A DNA stretch of 64,000 nt from NCBI GenBank assembly GCA_947259245.1, contig CAMYLP010000003.1, positions 27,118 through 91,117 on the forward strand. Direction: 5' to 3'. The translations under genes and the position numbers were made by a program. Position 1 is the first letter of the stretch; every line of letters begins with the position of its first letter. Of this stretch, positions 11,874 through 57,195 are shown piece by piece. Source of the stretch: an uncultured Patescibacteria group bacterium. Lineage in GTDB: Bacteria > Patescibacteriota > Minisyncoccia > Phycocordibacterales > UBA12088. Under the pieces are notes generated by a model. The model had not been told where the DNA came from. It did no database searches and saw only the letters and a program-made list of their open reading frames with translations.

Positions 11874-12263
11874 ATGCGTCTGAACTGGAGTTCACGACGA
11901 GTGCTCACAGCGTACCTAACGTTGTTTGATGTAACCATCGATCCGATGAAAGATTTCTATTCCGCGATTACTATGCTCATAGAGACGTATCCGGATGAGA
12001 AGCCGCACATCGATGTATTGCTCGAACTACTCATATGCGAAGACGAAAATTGCGAGGGGTGCATAAGTACCCGACGCAGTAGGTTACGTGAAATTACGCC
12101 GGTGCAAATGTTTTTAGCGGGTGCGTGCGAACGTCGCTACAGACATAGGGGTGGCAGCTCGGAGAAGTTGTACGTACAAGAGTGCCTAGAAAAAATTTAC
12201 CGTGTTTTCGATTCCATGGACGAGTTTGATGACACTGATCACGTGGTCTGTAATGACACCTGA
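11874..12263 (+). CDS. hypothetical small Cys-rich protein (~129 aa)
   Basis: ATG 11874 preceded by AAAGGAGGGG SD (11861-11870); CEDENCEGC cluster; upstream part of the 245-aa ORF is antisense to the lipoprotein gene and rejected. Confidence 0.45.
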   Translation: MRLNWSSRRVLTAYLTLFDVTIDPMKDFYSAITMLIETYPDEKPHIDVLLELLICEDENCEGCISTRRSRLREITPVQMFLAGACERRYRHRGGSSEKLYVQECLEKIYRVFDSMDEFDDTDHVVCNDT

Positions 12264-52110: not shown

Positions 52111-53394
52111 TCACGCAACATGTGGTGATACTGTTGGGATATCAGCCCAACTACTAGTGTAGCGAGGCGAAAGTGTATTGCTTTTTGGATGCCAGCTTTT
52201 CTCTGTAGTACATCGCAACTCCTCGGCACCAAGCTGTACGGCCCGGTCACCAAAGCGATGTCGTAATGCGTCAAGCGCATGCATAAGTGGCTTCCTCGCC
52301 CCACTCTCCTCGCCAAAGATCGTCCGCGGCATGACGCTCTCCTCTGGAACAATATCCTTCACCATCACACCGGCTTTAGCGTACGGAAAACCTTTTCTAT
52401 ACATGCGCTCGAGTACGCTGAGTGCCGTCTGCACGATGGTGATCGTGTCGTTCGTGTGATGAGTGAGCGTGTCACCATCGTAGGCACTGTAGCGATGTGT
52501 GGTGTGACGAGAGGTACGAATCGTCACATACACCTCGCGTGCCGCGGCACCCTCAACGCGGAGCACCTCCGCCGCCTTGCGCGCGTGGTGTGCTATCGCC
52601 TGCTTGAGACCTGACAGATCGTAAACGGGTCTTCCGAAGGACTGTGAATGAAGGAGTGACTTTCTAAGTGTCGTATCCTCTCCAACAGTAAAACAAGGCG
52701 TACCTCGGAGCTCATAGACGGTGCGCAAACCCCGTACGCTCAGTCGCTTGCGTAGCCACGTATCATCCATGCGGATAAGCTTTCCGGCCGTTGTAACACC
52801 AAGGTCCTTCAACACGGGTCCCAGACGAAATCCAATACCCCACACCTCATCGACCGGGAGCTCCTCAAGTGCAACATTGCGCACGTAGGGCTCAAGAAGA
52901 AGGTTGACCCCACGCCCGCCGTACTTTGGCTTGGCGAAGTGCGTCGCTACTTTTGCAAGGGTCTTTGTATGTGCTACACCCACTGAGACCGGTATGCCGG
53001 TCTCACGTATGACGGCCGTGTGCAGCGCGTGCGCTTGTTGTGCAATATCTCCATCGCGTCCGTCGAGAGCCACAAACGCCTCATCAACCGAGTATGCTTC
53101 TACCGTATCTGCATACCGGCGAAGTACCGACATGATGCGGCGGGACATGTCCCGGTACAGCGCAAAATTGCTAGAGAAAATACTCACGCCGTGCTGATCG
53201 CAACGCTCACGTACTTTAAAGTATGGTTCACCCATAGTGAGTCCAAGTGCCTTCGCCTCTTCAGAACGTGAAATAACACACCCGTCATTGCTCGAAAGCA
53301 CAATGACCGGTTTGTTTCTGAGCTCAGGGCGAAATAACCGCTCGCACGAGACAAAAAAATTATTTGCATCTATCAACACCGTGTATATTGACAT
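52111..53394 (-). CDS. Y-family translesion DNA polymerase (UmuC/DinB-like)
   Basis: IDANNFFVSCERL (Y-family DxD-equivalent start), SRSEEAKALG, little-finger region; 427 aa. Confidence 0.85.
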   Translation of the reverse strand: MSIYTVLIDANNFFVSCERLFRPELRNKPVIVLSSNDGCVISRSEEAKALGLTMGEPYFKVRERCDQHGVSIFSSNFALYRDMSRRIMSVLRRYADTVEAYSVDEAFVALDGRDGDIAQQAHALHTAVIRETGIPVSVGVAHTKTLAKVATHFAKPKYGGRGVNLLLEPYVRNVALEELPVDEVWGIGFRLGPVLKDLGVTTAGKLIRMDDTWLRKRLSVRGLRTVYELRGTPCFTVGEDTTLRKSLLHSQSFGRPVYDLSGLKQAIAHHARKAAEVLRVEGAAAREVYVTIRTSRHTTHRYSAYDGDTLTHHTNDTITIVQTALSVLERMYRKGFPYAKAGVMVKDIVPEESVMPRTIFGEESGARKPLMHALDALRHRFGDRAVQLGAEELRCTTEKSWHPKSNTLSPRYTSSWADIPTVSPHVA

Positions 53395-53440: not shown

Positions 53441-53626
53441 ATGAGTATTGCAGACTTATTACACCGGAAAGACAGTCAGCATGAAGCCGAGGAAGACATG
53501 CTCGGCGTCGAAGCAAGCGTGGAGATTAAAAACCTGCCGCAAGAGGAGCACCATACCAACGACAGCGACAGTGCGGGGCTGGACGTAGTCGAACATTACA
53601 GGACGGCAGTACAGCCGATCGAATAA
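53441..53626 (+). CDS. hypothetical small acidic protein (61 aa) with perfect Shine-Dalgarno
   Basis: TAAGGAGGT at 53427-53435, 5-nt spacer to ATG; lies between umuD'-like and polY genes on the opposite strand. Confidence 0.4.
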   Translation: MSIADLLHRKDSQHEAEEDMLGVEASVEIKNLPQEEHHTNDSDSAGLDVVEHYRTAVQPIE

Positions 53627-53680: not shown

Positions 53681-54010
53681 TTACATCCTCCGTGCAAGTG
53701 CAATGACCGAACCCCAGTACTCTGCGGCCTCCCCGTCTACCAAGCGTGCCACTACTAACTCCCCTTCCTGCACGAACACCGAAAGCGTGCCCGTGCAAGG
53801 AGGAACAGCCCTGTCCACCACCAAAACATCATCCCTTCGTATGTCGAGCTTGCCACAGACGTGGAGGTCTCCACCCACGCGTACGAAGAAAGTTGAGGTC
53901 GGATGCGCCACAAAGTGCGCGTCAAGTGAGAGAGGGTTCTTGTACTCGTGTTCGTCACCCTCCTCTCCGAGTTCACGTGGTGATGTTCGTATAAAGGAAA
54001 CTGGCTTCAT
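53681..54010 (-). CDS. UmuD'-like S24-fold protein lacking the catalytic Ser/Lys dyad and the N-terminal cleavage arm
   Basis: Aligns to LexA C-domain in same window: VKGESM -> VGGDLH (Ser->Leu), TVKYL -> VVARL (Lys->Ala); 9 nt after preceding gene. Confidence 0.6.
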   Translation of the reverse strand: MKPVSFIRTSPRELGEEGDEHEYKNPLSLDAHFVAHPTSTFFVRVGGDLHVCGKLDIRRDDVLVVDRAVPPCTGTLSVFVQEGELVVARLVDGEAAEYWGSVIALARRM

Positions 54011-54019
54011 AACACAAGC

Positions 54020-55480
54020 TTACTGAGGCATTGAAATGTGAGCGCTCTGCAGAAGTGCCTCGTCTCTGCTGGTCAGTTCGCGTACCGTTACCTTTGGACG
54101 GCGTTTGCCCAGCTCTCGCGTAAGTATCTTGTATGCGTCGTAATCAAAACGAAACTGTGCCGGAATGAATTCCTCCCACTCGGTACCATTGAAATGAAGT
54201 GCGGCGAGCAGTCGCCACTGGTCGACAATGAAGAGCTCTCCCGTACCATCCACACGCCGCTCGTCGATACCCACAGGCCCTGTGTATGGCCACACGTGCA
54301 TACGGTGCGCCTCGAACGCCTCGCGAAAACGTCTGTTGTAATGGCGGTGCTTCTCCTTTCCTATGCACGCACCCCGACACTGCTCTAATTGTTGTGCAAA
54401 ACACGGCGCCTTTGGAGATGATGCTTTTTCTATACCAAGGAGCTGTGGGCAAAGCTCGTACTCCTTTGCAAGCTGACCGAGTACATCACGTGCCTGCTTT
54501 TTTGTTTTGAAGATGGCAGCAATGTTCTTTTCCTCCCCCAACTCTATGGTATCCGCGTGTGAGAGCTCCGTTACATGATACCCTGCGTCGTTTATATCTT
54601 CGCGTACCAGACAGAGTGCGTGCCGCTCACGCGCCCGTACGTTGTAGACAGGCCCTCGGTCCTTGATCAGGTGCGACTCGAGGAGAAGTGCGCCGACCTC
54701 ACCTGCTGTCTCCCTATACTCAATACGCCGTATCTCGGAGAGCATGTCTTTTCCGCGTCCCGAGAGCCCGTCTTTTGCAAAATGTGAGCGGACCCTCGTG
54801 CGTATTTTGCGACTCTTTCCAATATAAAGAAGTTCGTCATCCTTGCCGTGGAAAAAGTAGACACCTGCACCTTCCGGTAGACTCTGCACCATCTCCTCTT
54901 TTACATGCATCGGTAGCCGTCGCACACGTACCTGTTCCTGCATGACCTCGTGCACATGCTCTATACTTAGTTCTTTGTAGGCAACTTGTAAGAACTGCCA
55001 AAGCACCTTTGCGTCATCAAGTGCTCGGTGCCGGTCACCGGGATCGAGGTCATACCGTTTGATGATGCTGTCGAGATTGTGCCGACGCAACTTCGGGTAG
55101 AGCGCCCTAGAGAGTTTTGCGGTGCAGAGGTACGGGTATGAAAAGGTGATGCCAAGGCGTCGGAACTCCTCAGAGAGGAAGCCGTAGTCAAAAGGAGCAT
55201 TGTGTGCAACGAAGAGCGCTCCCTCAAGAAACTCTGCAACCTCAAGCGCCACCTCGTCGAAGGTGGGCGCGCGTACAAGCATCGAGCTGGCAATACCCGT
55301 AAGTGATGTAATAAATGCCGGTACCGGCATGCCGGGGTCAACGAACGTACGGTACTCCCGTACGATCTCACCCCGCTCCACACGCACAAGACCTACTTCC
55401 ATCACCCGATGATGTCGGGGGCTCGTACCCGTCGTCTCAAGGTCTATAAACACCAGTGGTGTTTTATCGTCTACTTGCAT
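54020..55480 (-). CDS. DnaQ-type 3'-5' exonuclease fused to GIY-YIG / UvrC N-terminal-like (Cho-like) nuclease
   Basis: Exo I FIDLETTG, Exo II FVAHNAPFDYGFL, Exo III HRALDDAKV; GVYFFHG..LLYIGKS GIY-YIG; UvrC-like CFAQQLEQCRGAC. Confidence 0.8.
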   Translation of the reverse strand: MQVDDKTPLVFIDLETTGTSPRHHRVMEVGLVRVERGEIVREYRTFVDPGMPVPAFITSLTGIASSMLVRAPTFDEVALEVAEFLEGALFVAHNAPFDYGFLSEEFRRLGITFSYPYLCTAKLSRALYPKLRRHNLDSIIKRYDLDPGDRHRALDDAKVLWQFLQVAYKELSIEHVHEVMQEQVRVRRLPMHVKEEMVQSLPEGAGVYFFHGKDDELLYIGKSRKIRTRVRSHFAKDGLSGRGKDMLSEIRRIEYRETAGEVGALLLESHLIKDRGPVYNVRARERHALCLVREDINDAGYHVTELSHADTIELGEEKNIAAIFKTKKQARDVLGQLAKEYELCPQLLGIEKASSPKAPCFAQQLEQCRGACIGKEKHRHYNRRFREAFEAHRMHVWPYTGPVGIDERRVDGTGELFIVDQWRLLAALHFNGTEWEEFIPAQFRFDYDAYKILTRELGKRRPKVTVRELTSRDEALLQSAHISMPQ

Positions 55481-55495
55481 ACAGGCTCAAAGACA

Positions 55496-55580
55496 TAAAA
55501 ACACACGTGTCTGTGTGAGAGACTAAGACTTGGGCAAACGCCCCGGAGTGGTCTCTCATGCAGACATGTGTGTTTTTGAA
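55496..55580. repeat. 17-bp inverted repeat (AAAAACACACGTGTCTG / CAGACATGTGTGTTTTT) with nested GAGAGAC/GTCTCTC repeat; terminator/attenuator-like, between lexA and exonuclease gene
   Basis: On the minus-strand RNA forms a long stem followed by U5 only ~17 nt before the exonuclease ATG. Confidence 0.6.
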
Positions 55581-55588
55581 ATCTACAT

Positions 55589-56155
55589 TTATGCATATGT
55601 TCTGATAACGCTCCGCACAACACCGCCAACCTCAAGTGACTGCTCGGGATGTAGGTCCGGGTACTCTTCGTTTGCCGCTTCAAGGTACTTACGCCCGCGT
55701 TTCTCACGCAGGTACTTAACCGTCCATTCACCATCAATGCTTGCAACCACGATGTCATTCAATCGTGCGGTCTCTGTGCGCTCTACCAAAAGAAGATCCC
55801 CCTCATAAATACCCGCGTCTATCATAGACTCTCCCTTCACGCGCAATAAATAGAGTTTATCCCGACTCCCTAAGAGGAGCTCGTCCATGGTGACGTGGTC
55901 AAGAGCTATTTCCTCTGCGGGTGTTGGGAACCCCGCTTCGATGTAACCCACCAGTGGCACCTCGTCGCCTAGAGCAAGCGGCACAAGCTTGCCGCGTCCA
56001 TCCTTACGGACAACGCCTGCGTCTATCAGTTTTTCAACCACCTTTGCAACGGCGTTCTTTGAGGCAAAGCCGAAAAGAGCACACATCTCGCTGTAGCCCG
56101 GCATTCGTTTGTGCTTTCGATAAAAAGTCTGCAGCTGTTTCTTATACTGTTCCAT
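55589..56155 (-). CDS. lexA: LexA repressor
   Basis: N-terminal wHTH; VKGESM catalytic Ser and TVKYL Lys; AG cleavage-site context. Confidence 0.9.
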   Translation of the reverse strand: MEQYKKQLQTFYRKHKRMPGYSEMCALFGFASKNAVAKVVEKLIDAGVVRKDGRGKLVPLALGDEVPLVGYIEAGFPTPAEEIALDHVTMDELLLGSRDKLYLLRVKGESMIDAGIYEGDLLLVERTETARLNDIVVASIDGEWTVKYLREKRGRKYLEAANEEYPDLHPEQSLEVGGVVRSVIRTYA

Positions 56156-56181: not shown

Positions 56182-56448
56182 CTACGCCACACCAAAGCCG
56201 AGTACACGGCTCATCACGCCGCGACTGAGACTGCGGTGCACGGGACTCTTCACGCGCCGCAGGGTCTTGGCGCGCTTAGGGACCAGTATTGTATCTTCCT
56301 CGTTCATACTTCGGAGTGTCGCGAGAAGCTCTTTATGGTGGCGAGCTTCCTTCTGGAAGGACTGTCCCCTGATGATCTTGCGGTCAATGCGGTCGTTTAT
56401 CTTTTCGAGTTCCTTGTGGATCTCTTTAGAAAGTGTGCTTTTGCTCAT
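56182..56448 (-). CDS. hypothetical basic 88-aa protein, first gene of the LexA-box-controlled transcript
   Basis: ATG 38 nt downstream of LexA box/promoter; no TM; helical, K/R-rich. Confidence 0.45.
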   Translation of the reverse strand: MSKSTLSKEIHKELEKINDRIDRKIIRGQSFQKEARHHKELLATLRSMNEEDTILVPKRAKTLRRVKSPVHRSLSRGVMSRVLGFGVA

Positions 56449-56477
56449 ATGCCTGTGCGTTACCCTTGTATGCTTTC

Positions 56478-56506
56478 ATTGTAGGTGAACGTTCGTTCAC
56501 CGTCAA
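56478..56506 (-). promoter_or_regulatory. LexA-repressed promoter: TTGACG-17-TACAAT with Cheo-type LexA box GTGAAC-gaac-GTTCAC filling the spacer
   Basis: rc of cgtcaa 56501-06 (-35), attgta 56478-83 (-10); GAAC-N4-GTTC palindrome 56485-56500. Confidence 0.6.
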
Positions 56507-56607
56507 GCACAGGTGTCTGTATATGATGTTTATACGTACGTTACTGTAATTCTGTCAAACTTCCCGCCCCGGGTTCGTTCGCTCGATACATCATCGTTTG
56601 TGTTACT

Positions 56608-57195
56608 ATGTGTGACATGAAAAAGTCAACGCTGACAACGGCACTTATCCTATCACTGACGCTCAACGTGCTGTTGTATCATCAGCTTTCACAGAAGGAC
56701 TCGCCTATCAACGACCCCGGCTCGAATGCACCGACGAAGGTAATAACGGAGGTAGAACCACCTACCCTTCCACGGTCAGGAAGCTATCCTTTCATTCGGG
56801 TAGTAGACGGGGATACCATAACTGTTGGTATCGAAGGTCGCACGGAGTTTGTTCGTCTTATCGGCATCGACTCTCCCGAGCCGAATGACCCGGGTGGTGC
56901 CGAATGTTATGCGAATGAGGCAACGAACCACATGCGCGAGCTTACCCGTACCGGCACTGTTGCACTCTACTTCGATGAATCACAAGGTACCCGTGATACA
57001 TATGGACGACTGCTCGCGTACGTTGAACTGCCTGATGGTACTGATATTGGCGCGGCAATGGTGCGGGATGGATATGCACGAGAGTACACGTACGATGAGC
57101 GATACGAGCGCGCAAACGTCTACCGTGCTGCAGAGTTGGAAGCGATCGAGGCAGAACGTGGACTGTGGGCGCCATCTGCGTGCAACACAAACTAG
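56608..57195 (+). CDS. membrane-anchored staphylococcal-nuclease-like (thermonuclease) protein
   Basis: N-terminal TM; VVDGDTITV..RLIGIDSPE..YGRLLAYV SNase motifs. Confidence 0.8.
   Translation: MCDMKKSTLTTALILSLTLNVLLYHQLSQKDSPINDPGSNAPTKVITEVEPPTLPRSGSYPFIRVVDGDTITVGIEGRTEFVRLIGIDSPEPNDPGGAECYANEATNHMRELTRTGTVALYFDESQGTRDTYGRLLAYVELPDGTDIGAAMVRDGYAREYTYDERYERANVYRAAELEAIEAERGLWAPSACNTN

Follow-up and report, generated by a model that had tools for sequence, protein, structure and literature searches.

The minus strand of the window (the whole stretch of 64,000 nucleotides (nt) analysed in our study, from an uncultured Patescibacteria group bacterium) contained a lexA locus, in which a promoter with a predicted LexA operator is followed by a small open reading frame (ORF) and lexA. 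The order of the genes on this strand was an ORF of 88 amino acids (aa), lexA, a cho-like fusion gene, a UmuD-like gene, UmuC, an Excalibur-domain protein, a helix-hairpin-helix (HhH)/DUF4332 protein, uracil-DNA glycosylase (UDG, 51149-50457), a peptidase and grpE-dnaK-dnaJ. From 56506 to 56478 the minus strand reads TTGACG (56506-56501), GTGAACGAACGTTCACC (56500-56484) and TACAAT (56483-56478). The hexamers TTGACG (56501-56506) and TACAAT (56478-56483) were assigned as the -35 and -10 elements, respectively, from the sequence and a generic promoter scan, and the -10 hexamer also from its fixed register in orthologous loci. The predicted operator (56484-56501, minus strand) is an 18-bp palindrome, GGTGAAC-GAAC-GTTCACC, with the core GAAC-N4-GTTC at 56487-56498, and was identified from a position weight matrix (PWM), conservation and co-variation with helix 3 of LexA. 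Its arms of 7 bp (GGTGAAC/GTTCACC) enclose a 4-nt centre, and the palindrome shares its first G with the end of the -35 hexamer. The earlier note had described a palindrome with 6-bp arms, GTGAAC/GTTCAC; the palindrome is present and the true arm is slightly longer.

The dyad GAAC-N4-GTTC had also been placed inside the spacer of a sigma-70-type promoter, and the minus-strand hexamers and the 17-nt spacer were found exactly as claimed. The promoter TTGACG-17-TACAAT matched the hexamer consensus at 10 of 12 positions, which together with its spacer (within 17±1 nt) makes it a near-consensus sigma-70-type promoter, and it was the top-ranked promoter-like site when the surrounding 5.5 kb were scanned for generic promoters. 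A second promoter-like site close to the consensus, TTGACA-18 nt-TATAAA, was observed at 56529-56558 on the same strand, about 50 nt upstream of the predicted LexA-controlled promoter; it was not reported by the promoter scan since its -10 ends in A.

A weight matrix built from orthologous lexA-promoter sites gave the site 56483-56502 a score of 25.8 bits, followed by 10.5 bits for the runner-up in the 64 kb, so that the operator was the only match above 11 bits in the window. The best score among 200 shuffles was 18.6 bits. The bare core GAAC-N4-GTTC was not enriched in the window (3 found against 1.1 expected; 13 of 100 shuffles reached 3), and the remaining two bare-core matches, at 11882 and 39847, stayed below 9 bits on the family matrix. 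A search of the window found no near match of the full 29-mer elsewhere. As single-stranded DNA, the 29-mer forms a small hairpin of -6.4 kcal/mol (z = -3.2).

For the test of conservation, 44 Patescibacteria-type loci were retrieved by LexA protein similarity alone (40-52% identity), and 30 exact GAAC-N4-GTTC sites were found upstream of lexA in them. When six close relatives and the window were added, 39 loci contained the box by the PWM. The -10 element, TAnnnT, started exactly 3 nt past GTTC in 35 of these 39 loci and was mostly TATACT or TATAAT in the orthologous promoters; the TTG of the -35 element occupied either of two adjacent registers in 38, and the spacer was 17 or 18 nt in 29, as measured with a crude hexamer picker. 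The arrangement of an operator in the lexA promoter, as the earlier note had it, is thus kept across dozens of Patescibacteria lexA loci. The GAAC/GTTC core was invariant in 38 of the 39 related lexA promoters, and the base adjoining GAAC was T in 29, A in 9 (sister clades) and C in one. The window contained TGAAC...GTTCA in place of CGAAC-N4-GTTCG; the core of the consensus LexA box claimed earlier was therefore present and its C/G flanks were not, and the clade-specific flank makes the site a variant of the consensus. Over about 40-110 independent loci the 4-nt centre varied freely while the half-sites stayed constant, which points to a site for a dimeric protein rather than to a structural hairpin.

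The six close relatives (74-87% LexA identity) contained exactly one box per 12.5-kb locus, always of the form TTGA-cGGTGAAC-N4-GTTCACCT-Annnat, and the sequence on either side could not be aligned; in this comparison the operator/promoter module stands out as a clear phylogenetic footprint. Six loci of the Peregrinibacteria type, which escaped the PWM, had the same layout, but their core was degenerate (GTGnAC-N4-GTnCAC) and another box followed immediately after the -10 element. Two adjacent boxes were observed 100-40 nt upstream in the lexA promoters of the Peregrinibacteria/Peribacteria type (L032, L033, L035, L036, L037, L041 and L043), one in the -35/-10 spacer and the other right after the -10 element, with the third core position degenerate; helix 3 of these proteins was SKNAVAKVV, as in the LexA of the window. 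Spacer-embedded boxes of the GAAC type were also observed before the LexA of Nitrospirota (L022 and L024, Nitrospirales metagenome-assembled genomes), which is 47-48% identical to the LexA of the candidate phyla radiation (CPR); their sequences were GGCGAAC-N4-GTTCGC and GTGTAC-N4-GTACAC.

The module was also searched for with a coding-blind pattern, TTGAC-N1-2-GTGAAC-N4-GTTCAC-N-TA, which holds no coding information. The pattern matched at least 120 metagenome contigs and gave zero matches among 2.9 million viral contigs. Among the matches listed were 80 module loci, five of which end too early to be classified. In 71 of the 75 informative contigs the next gene was lexA and/or its partner small ORF: the small ORF and then lexA in 43, lexA directly in 24, and the small ORF and then the contig end in four. 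The four exceptions contained a Y-family polymerase (L094), N6-adenine methylases (L093 and L130) and a weak match to a DDE transposase (L143). The two methylase contigs are unrelated, with the module at 9717-9741 in L093 and at 220-244 on the reverse strand in L130, and the N6-adenine DNA methylase genes behind it belong to restriction-modification systems; L130 also contained an HsdS-like gene. These may be LexA-controlled restriction-modification systems, or may result from an insertion between the promoter and lexA.

The polymerase of L094 was considered as a member of a CPR SOS regulon and rejected. Its homologues are DNA polymerase IV (dinB) of Nitrospirota, and although it is preceded by an exact CPR-type module with a leaderless start, the box was absent from orthologous loci (L208-L212); since the gene belongs to Nitrospirota and two orthologues are boxless, it is not evidence for the CPR lineage. 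All it shows is that in another phylum one genome has the module ahead of a translesion synthesis (TLS) gene. No further box of at least 15 bits was found in 467 kb and 527 kb of related loci, save one marginal match of 15.3 bits. The genes recA, uvrA and uvrB were absent from the 64-kb window and recA/uvr were absent from the fetched CPR loci; a tblastn search of the fetched loci with E. coli RecA (an approximate query sequence) found recA in a gammaproteobacterial locus only.

The gene lexA (55589-56155, minus strand) is encoded 330 nt downstream of the operator. Its 188-aa product contained a winged helix-turn-helix (wHTH) and an autocleaving S24 domain, as judged from Pfam, TIGR00498 and alignments. 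The S24 domain (PF00717) was matched at 4.3e-26 in Pfam, and the NCBIfam model TIGR00498 covered residues 13-187 with 108.8 bits against a cutoff of 110.95. In phmmer searches, residues 8/19-185 were aligned to the solved LexA structures 3k2z and 1jhh/3jso, helices 2-3 included. The N-terminal wHTH is, on these alignments, divergent but recognisable; it passes by alignment and is marginal by curated score. Ser110 and Lys147 were invariant in 21 family members and aligned with GMSM and TVKRL of E. coli; the Ala-Gly cleavage site A74-G75 (VGYIEAGFP) was likewise invariant in the family and aligned with E. coli VAAGEP. The homologues were overwhelmingly from Patescibacteria (Paceibacterota, Parcubacteria, Zambryskibacteria, Nomurabacteria and Kaiserbacteria). 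Its residues and relatives mark the protein as a canonical LexA from a CPR bacterium of the Paceibacteria type; the lexA predicted behind the small ORF was thus borne out, its product aligning over the full length with solved LexA and the catalytic and cleavage residues being intact. An identical NCBI entry (P0001, 100% identity) is annotated with 171 aa from Met18, whereas the window encodes 17 extra residues at 56105-56155 (minus strand). These residues include F11, Y12 and R17, which are conserved in the family, so translation of lexA probably begins at the ATG at 56155, and P0001 is probably annotated without its true N-terminus; several relatives (entries of 170-173 aa) are likewise shortened.

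Helix 3 of the window LexA is SKNAVAKV, and the flank of the box was found to change together with this helix. The flank GT-GAAC was paired with helix 3 of the form S-K-N-A-x-x-K/R, with Asn in 27 of 27 loci, whereas TA-/CA-GAAC was paired with S-K-[G/A/S]-x-x-x-[Y/F], in which Asn was present in none of nine loci and the aromatic residue in all nine. The single GC-GAAC site (L022) was paired with Asp in helix 3, and the single site with a changed core, GTGTAC-N4-GTACAC (L024), with Phe. The loci are phylogenetically related, and these counts are not a formal statistic. The co-varying positions align with Asn41 and Glu45 of E. coli LexA, which we take to be base-contacting residues in the LexA-operator structure 3JSO. 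Such co-variation is the pattern expected if LexA reads the site, and would be hard to square with another regulator.

The position of the promoter is further specified by the loci in which lexA directly follows the module. In 19 of these 26 loci the ATG began 6 nt past the -10 element, and in two more 7 nt past it (L089, L092, L103, L116, L005, L007, L016 and L021 are among the leaderless examples); many CPR lineages thus appear to make a leaderless lexA mRNA from the A of the ATG. This spacing fixes the assignment of the -10 element, and from the register in the related loci the transcription start site (TSS) of the window is predicted at the A at 56471 (minus strand), the 7th nucleotide after the -10 element. 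Among the 44 loci with the small ORF, the predicted TSS position was occupied by a purine in 42, and the next base was T in 36. With a TSS at 56471 and the ATG at 56448, the leader of the small ORF would be 23 nt long.

The best explanation of the locus, to which we give a probability of about 0.88, is that the operator of LexA lies inside the promoter of a small ORF-lexA operon and is autoregulatory. The operator at 56484-56501 would be the site of the LexA encoded downstream and would fill the 17-nt spacer between TTGACG and TACAAT, and the promoter would transcribe a core operon of two genes, that of the 88-aa protein and lexA. A LexA dimer on the two GAAC half-sites would block RNA polymerase from the flanking -35 and -10 elements. 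DNA damage would lead to RecA-stimulated self-cleavage at Ala74-Gly75 through Ser110/Lys147 and so free the operator, and the freed promoter would be transcribed from about 56471, which would make an SOS-type negative autoregulatory loop. LexA binding, the occlusion, the TSS, the dependence on RecA and the extent of transcription into the cho-like, umuD' and umuC genes are all steps that we infer.

Several points weigh against this explanation. Neither the window nor about 1 Mb of related DNA yielded a second operator before any other repair gene, so that these data do not establish a regulon as usually understood; the sole TLS-polymerase gene behind a module, that of Nitrospirota, is not a CPR gene and two of its orthologues are boxless. 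The flanks of the box differ from the consensus of Bacillus and Mycobacterium. The score of the LexA protein is about 2 bits below the cutoff of the NCBIfam lexA equivalog, and the Pfam model of the LexA DNA-binding domain (PF01726) gave no match at E <= 0.01. A strong hairpin follows lexA in this genome, and the promoter-like site at 56558-56529 could supply LexA-independent read-in, with transcripts that would cross the operator.

The alternative that survives best, although we consider it improbable, is that the palindrome is the operator of another regulator, such as the 88-aa protein or another repressor, and that LexA is a mere passenger gene. In its favour, the small ORF and lexA are closely linked, the family of the ORF shows a weak sub-threshold match to the DNA-binding protein SpoIIID (E = 0.0024, in 4 of 31 members), and the contact of LexA with the site is a prediction. 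However, in at least 24 loci the small ORF is absent and lexA comes directly after the module, which is no less conserved there, and the flanks of the box co-vary with helix-3 residues of LexA itself. The core is, moreover, the experimentally established LexA motif of other phyla, and the structure predicted for the 88-aa protein is a simple helical hairpin that lacks a helix-turn-helix.

A still less probable alternative is that the S24 protein is the repressor of a prophage or mobile element and the palindrome is of phage type rather than a chromosomal SOS operator. Members of the protein cluster are annotated as 'Prophage repressor [Parcubacteria group bacterium]', and two of the module contigs contain restriction-modification methylases downstream and one a transposase. 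Chromosomal synteny is, however, kept in the relatives (pyruvate kinase, SNase, small ORF, lexA, repair genes, UDG and grpE-dnaK-dnaJ), and on this and the zero matches among viral contigs the alternative was rejected; the full-length alignment with cellular LexA, including the three-helix wHTH, and the downstream cargo of TLS and repair genes also argue against it. The least credible alternative is that the palindrome arose by chance, or acts as a structural hairpin such as a terminator or an RNA element, in sequence that resembles a promoter. The unenriched bare core and the small single-stranded hairpin might favour this view, but it is effectively refuted by the conservation data, since the half-sites are invariant around a free centre, the PWM score exceeds that of every shuffle, and the site lies upstream of the predicted TSS and thus outside the transcript.

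The first cistron of the operon (56182-56448, minus strand) encodes the 88-aa protein, a conserved protein with a helical hairpin and a basic/hydrophobic tail, as judged from 63 distinct family members and an AlphaFold model; the small ORF that had been proposed between the operator and lexA was found at 56448-56182. The 63 sequences were recovered from loci that include L002-L019, L081-L087 and L090-L166. The N-terminal core of the family contained the conserved residues E-[IL]-x-x-[IL]-N-x-x-I-D-x-K-I-x-x-G-x-x-[YF]-x-x-E-A-R-x-H-K-x-L-L (helix-Gly-helix), followed by a variable basic linker and a short aromatic/hydrophobic C-terminal tail. The gene is usually present before lexA, and in three loci (L091, L112 and L128) it is present after lexA. 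The model showed an antiparallel helical hairpin with helices at residues 3-27 and 32-54 and a tail of low confidence; the predicted local distance difference test score (pLDDT) was about 95 over residues 11-40. No relative was found in Pfam, NCBIfam or the PDB, and Foldseek searches with the model gave only generic helical hairpins, all with E >1. The assignments of the ORF as YnzC/DUF896-like or SpoIIID-like were rejected, there being no significant Pfam, NCBIfam or PDB profile match.

The 88-aa protein is very probably damage-inducible. Tentatively, and with the odds rather against it, the protein might represent an undescribed, Paceibacteria-wide family of LexA-controlled SOS effectors, perhaps a division inhibitor or a modulator of LexA/RecA. 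Small proteins (YneA, SosA, DivS, ChiZ and SidA) adjoin lexA in other phyla, and if the proposal is true, the 88-aa protein would take the role of these unrelated proteins. This first cistron is the most novel part of the locus.

Downstream of lexA, the cassette contained three genes of interest on the minus strand. The first (54020-55480) encodes a 486-aa fusion of a DnaQ-type 3'-5' exonuclease and a GIY-YIG/Cho-like nuclease (RNase_T 1e-36, GIY-YIG 8e-8, excinuclease Cho model 7e-59), and the fusion was syntenic in L081, L083, L085 and L087. The second (53681-54010) encodes a 109-aa UmuD'-like accessory subunit without a cleavable N-terminal arm, identified from an S24 match (2e-5) and an alignment with E. 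coli UmuD, in which GDS is replaced by GDL (Ser60 to Leu) and TVKKL by VVARL (Lys97 to Ala). Because Leu and Ala occupy the Ser60 and Lys97 positions and the arm is absent, the alignment indicates that the protein is an accessory subunit without catalytic activity, roughly as long as UmuD', for which activation by RecA would be unneeded. The third (52111-53394) encodes a 427-aa UmuC-type Y-family translesion polymerase (IMS 3e-40, UmuC subfamily model 5e-100). In the PWM scan of the window, neither the cho-like gene nor umuC had a box of its own.

A long stem-loop with a trailing U-run, a candidate terminator or attenuator, was found at 55497-55577 on the minus strand by RNA folding (-45.7 kcal/mol, z = -6.0) and a terminator scan. 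It lies between the lexA stop and the cho-like start, is preceded by an A-run and followed by a U-run, and is unique in the window. In the closest relative (L081, 87% LexA identity), the lexA-cho gap is 37 nt long and without a stem-loop, and the gaps between small ORF, lexA, cho-exo, umuD', umuC and UDG are 3, 37, 1, 16 and 9 nt, respectively; such tight gaps indicate one LexA-controlled operon carrying the whole mutagenesis/repair cassette. The umuD'-umuC gap, which is 16 nt in L081, is 286 nt in the window and contains a hairpin and an ORF on the opposite strand. This ORF (53441-53626, plus strand) encodes 61 aa, is acidic, is preceded by a GGAGG ribosome-binding site and gave no match in Pfam; small opposite-strand ORFs (80 and 70 aa) were also observed in the cassettes of L083 and L084. 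The cargo of the cassette varies among the relatives. In this genome the hairpin at 55497-55577 could separate transcription of lexA from that of the TLS genes. What can be said safely is that the predicted operator controls the small ORF and lexA; read-through that would bring the TLS genes under it as well is likely an ancestral trait, uncertain for the present genome.

On the other side of the operator, a divergent gene for a secreted nuclease, homologous to staphylococcal nuclease (SNase), is present at 56608-57195, with the LexA box about 100 nt away, and the divergent arrangement of SNase and lexA was kept in L083, L086 and L087. An extended -10-like sequence, TGtTACTAT (56601-56619, plus strand), was observed to end 7 nt before the second ATG of the SNase gene (56617, MKKSTL..., signal-peptide-like), which suggests that translation of SNase starts at Met4 and is leaderless.

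Previous studies reported GAAC-N4-GTTC as the established LexA motif of Firmicutes and Actinobacteria, with variants in Cyanobacteria and Chloroflexi, and it was long assumed to be ancestral (PMC4951493). Compared with the 'Cheo box' of LexA (DinR) in Firmicutes and Actinobacteria (CGAACRNRYGTTYC in B. subtilis, TCGAAC-N4-GTTCGA in mycobacteria), the site of the window has the same core, the same inverted-repeat geometry and the same 4-bp centre; it is likewise present in the lexA promoter, as fits autoregulation, and the repressor is likewise a self-cleaving LexA with a wHTH and an S24 domain. The CPR sites differ in their flank, which as counted above is mostly T, in the sister clades A and only once C, and in the 7-bp arms GGTGAAC, which are clade-specific. 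In Gram-positive bacteria a divergent small gene for a division inhibitor is present beside lexA (yneA, sosA, divS or chiZ), whereas the small gene of CPR precedes lexA in the same operon.

The E. coli system, with the LexA/SOS box CTGT-N8-ACAG, has a homologous repressor with the same Ala-Gly/Ser/Lys chemistry, which regulates its own gene through an operator that overlaps the lexA promoter. The half-site and the spacing are different, however, E. coli lexA has two boxes, and in the roughly 1 Mb of related DNA, lexA promoters were the only place where the CPR box was found. Helix 3 is SKNAVAKV in CPR and SPNAAEEH in E. coli; the former is presumably nearer to the E. coli pattern than to helix 3 of Bacillus. 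The Verrucomicrobia motif, TGTTC-N4-GAACA, is also a 14-bp dyad with a 4-bp centre and the same tetranucleotides, but its half-sites are in mirror-image orientation (PMC4951493). Its specificity was attributed to changes in helix 3, UDG and TLS genes were SOS-associated, and tandem sites were reported in the lexA promoters (PMC4951493). Two adjacent boxes are likewise present in the Peregrinibacteria-type loci, whereas the window contained one.

The SOS network of Patescibacteria, with its LexA motif and regulon, has reportedly been studied by comparative genomics by Sanchez-Osuna, Barbe and Erill (Environ Microbiol, 2017; pmid 28618189). In a later paper that study is listed among the examples of direct-repeat LexA motifs; the CPR loci analysed here are clearly palindromic. 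The element is of a textbook kind, and a new instance in a phylum whose SOS system has already been studied.

None of these findings overturns the current understanding of the SOS response. With this locus, the positions of the operator, the -35 and -10 elements and the TSS can be put to the test, and the clade-specific extended motif GGTGAAC-N4-GTTCACC offers a query with which SOS genes could be sought in Paceibacteria genomes. Further work would be worthwhile on the conserved partner protein, the leaderless architecture and the natural series of helix-3/flank specificities, in which Asn is paired with T, Asp with C, the combination of Gly/Ala/Ser and an aromatic residue with A, and Phe with a changed core. 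For the organism itself, the locus would mean that an uncultured CPR bacterium with a reduced genome retains the classical LexA autoregulatory switch, on a GAAC-N4-GTTC dyad that is thought to be ancestral.

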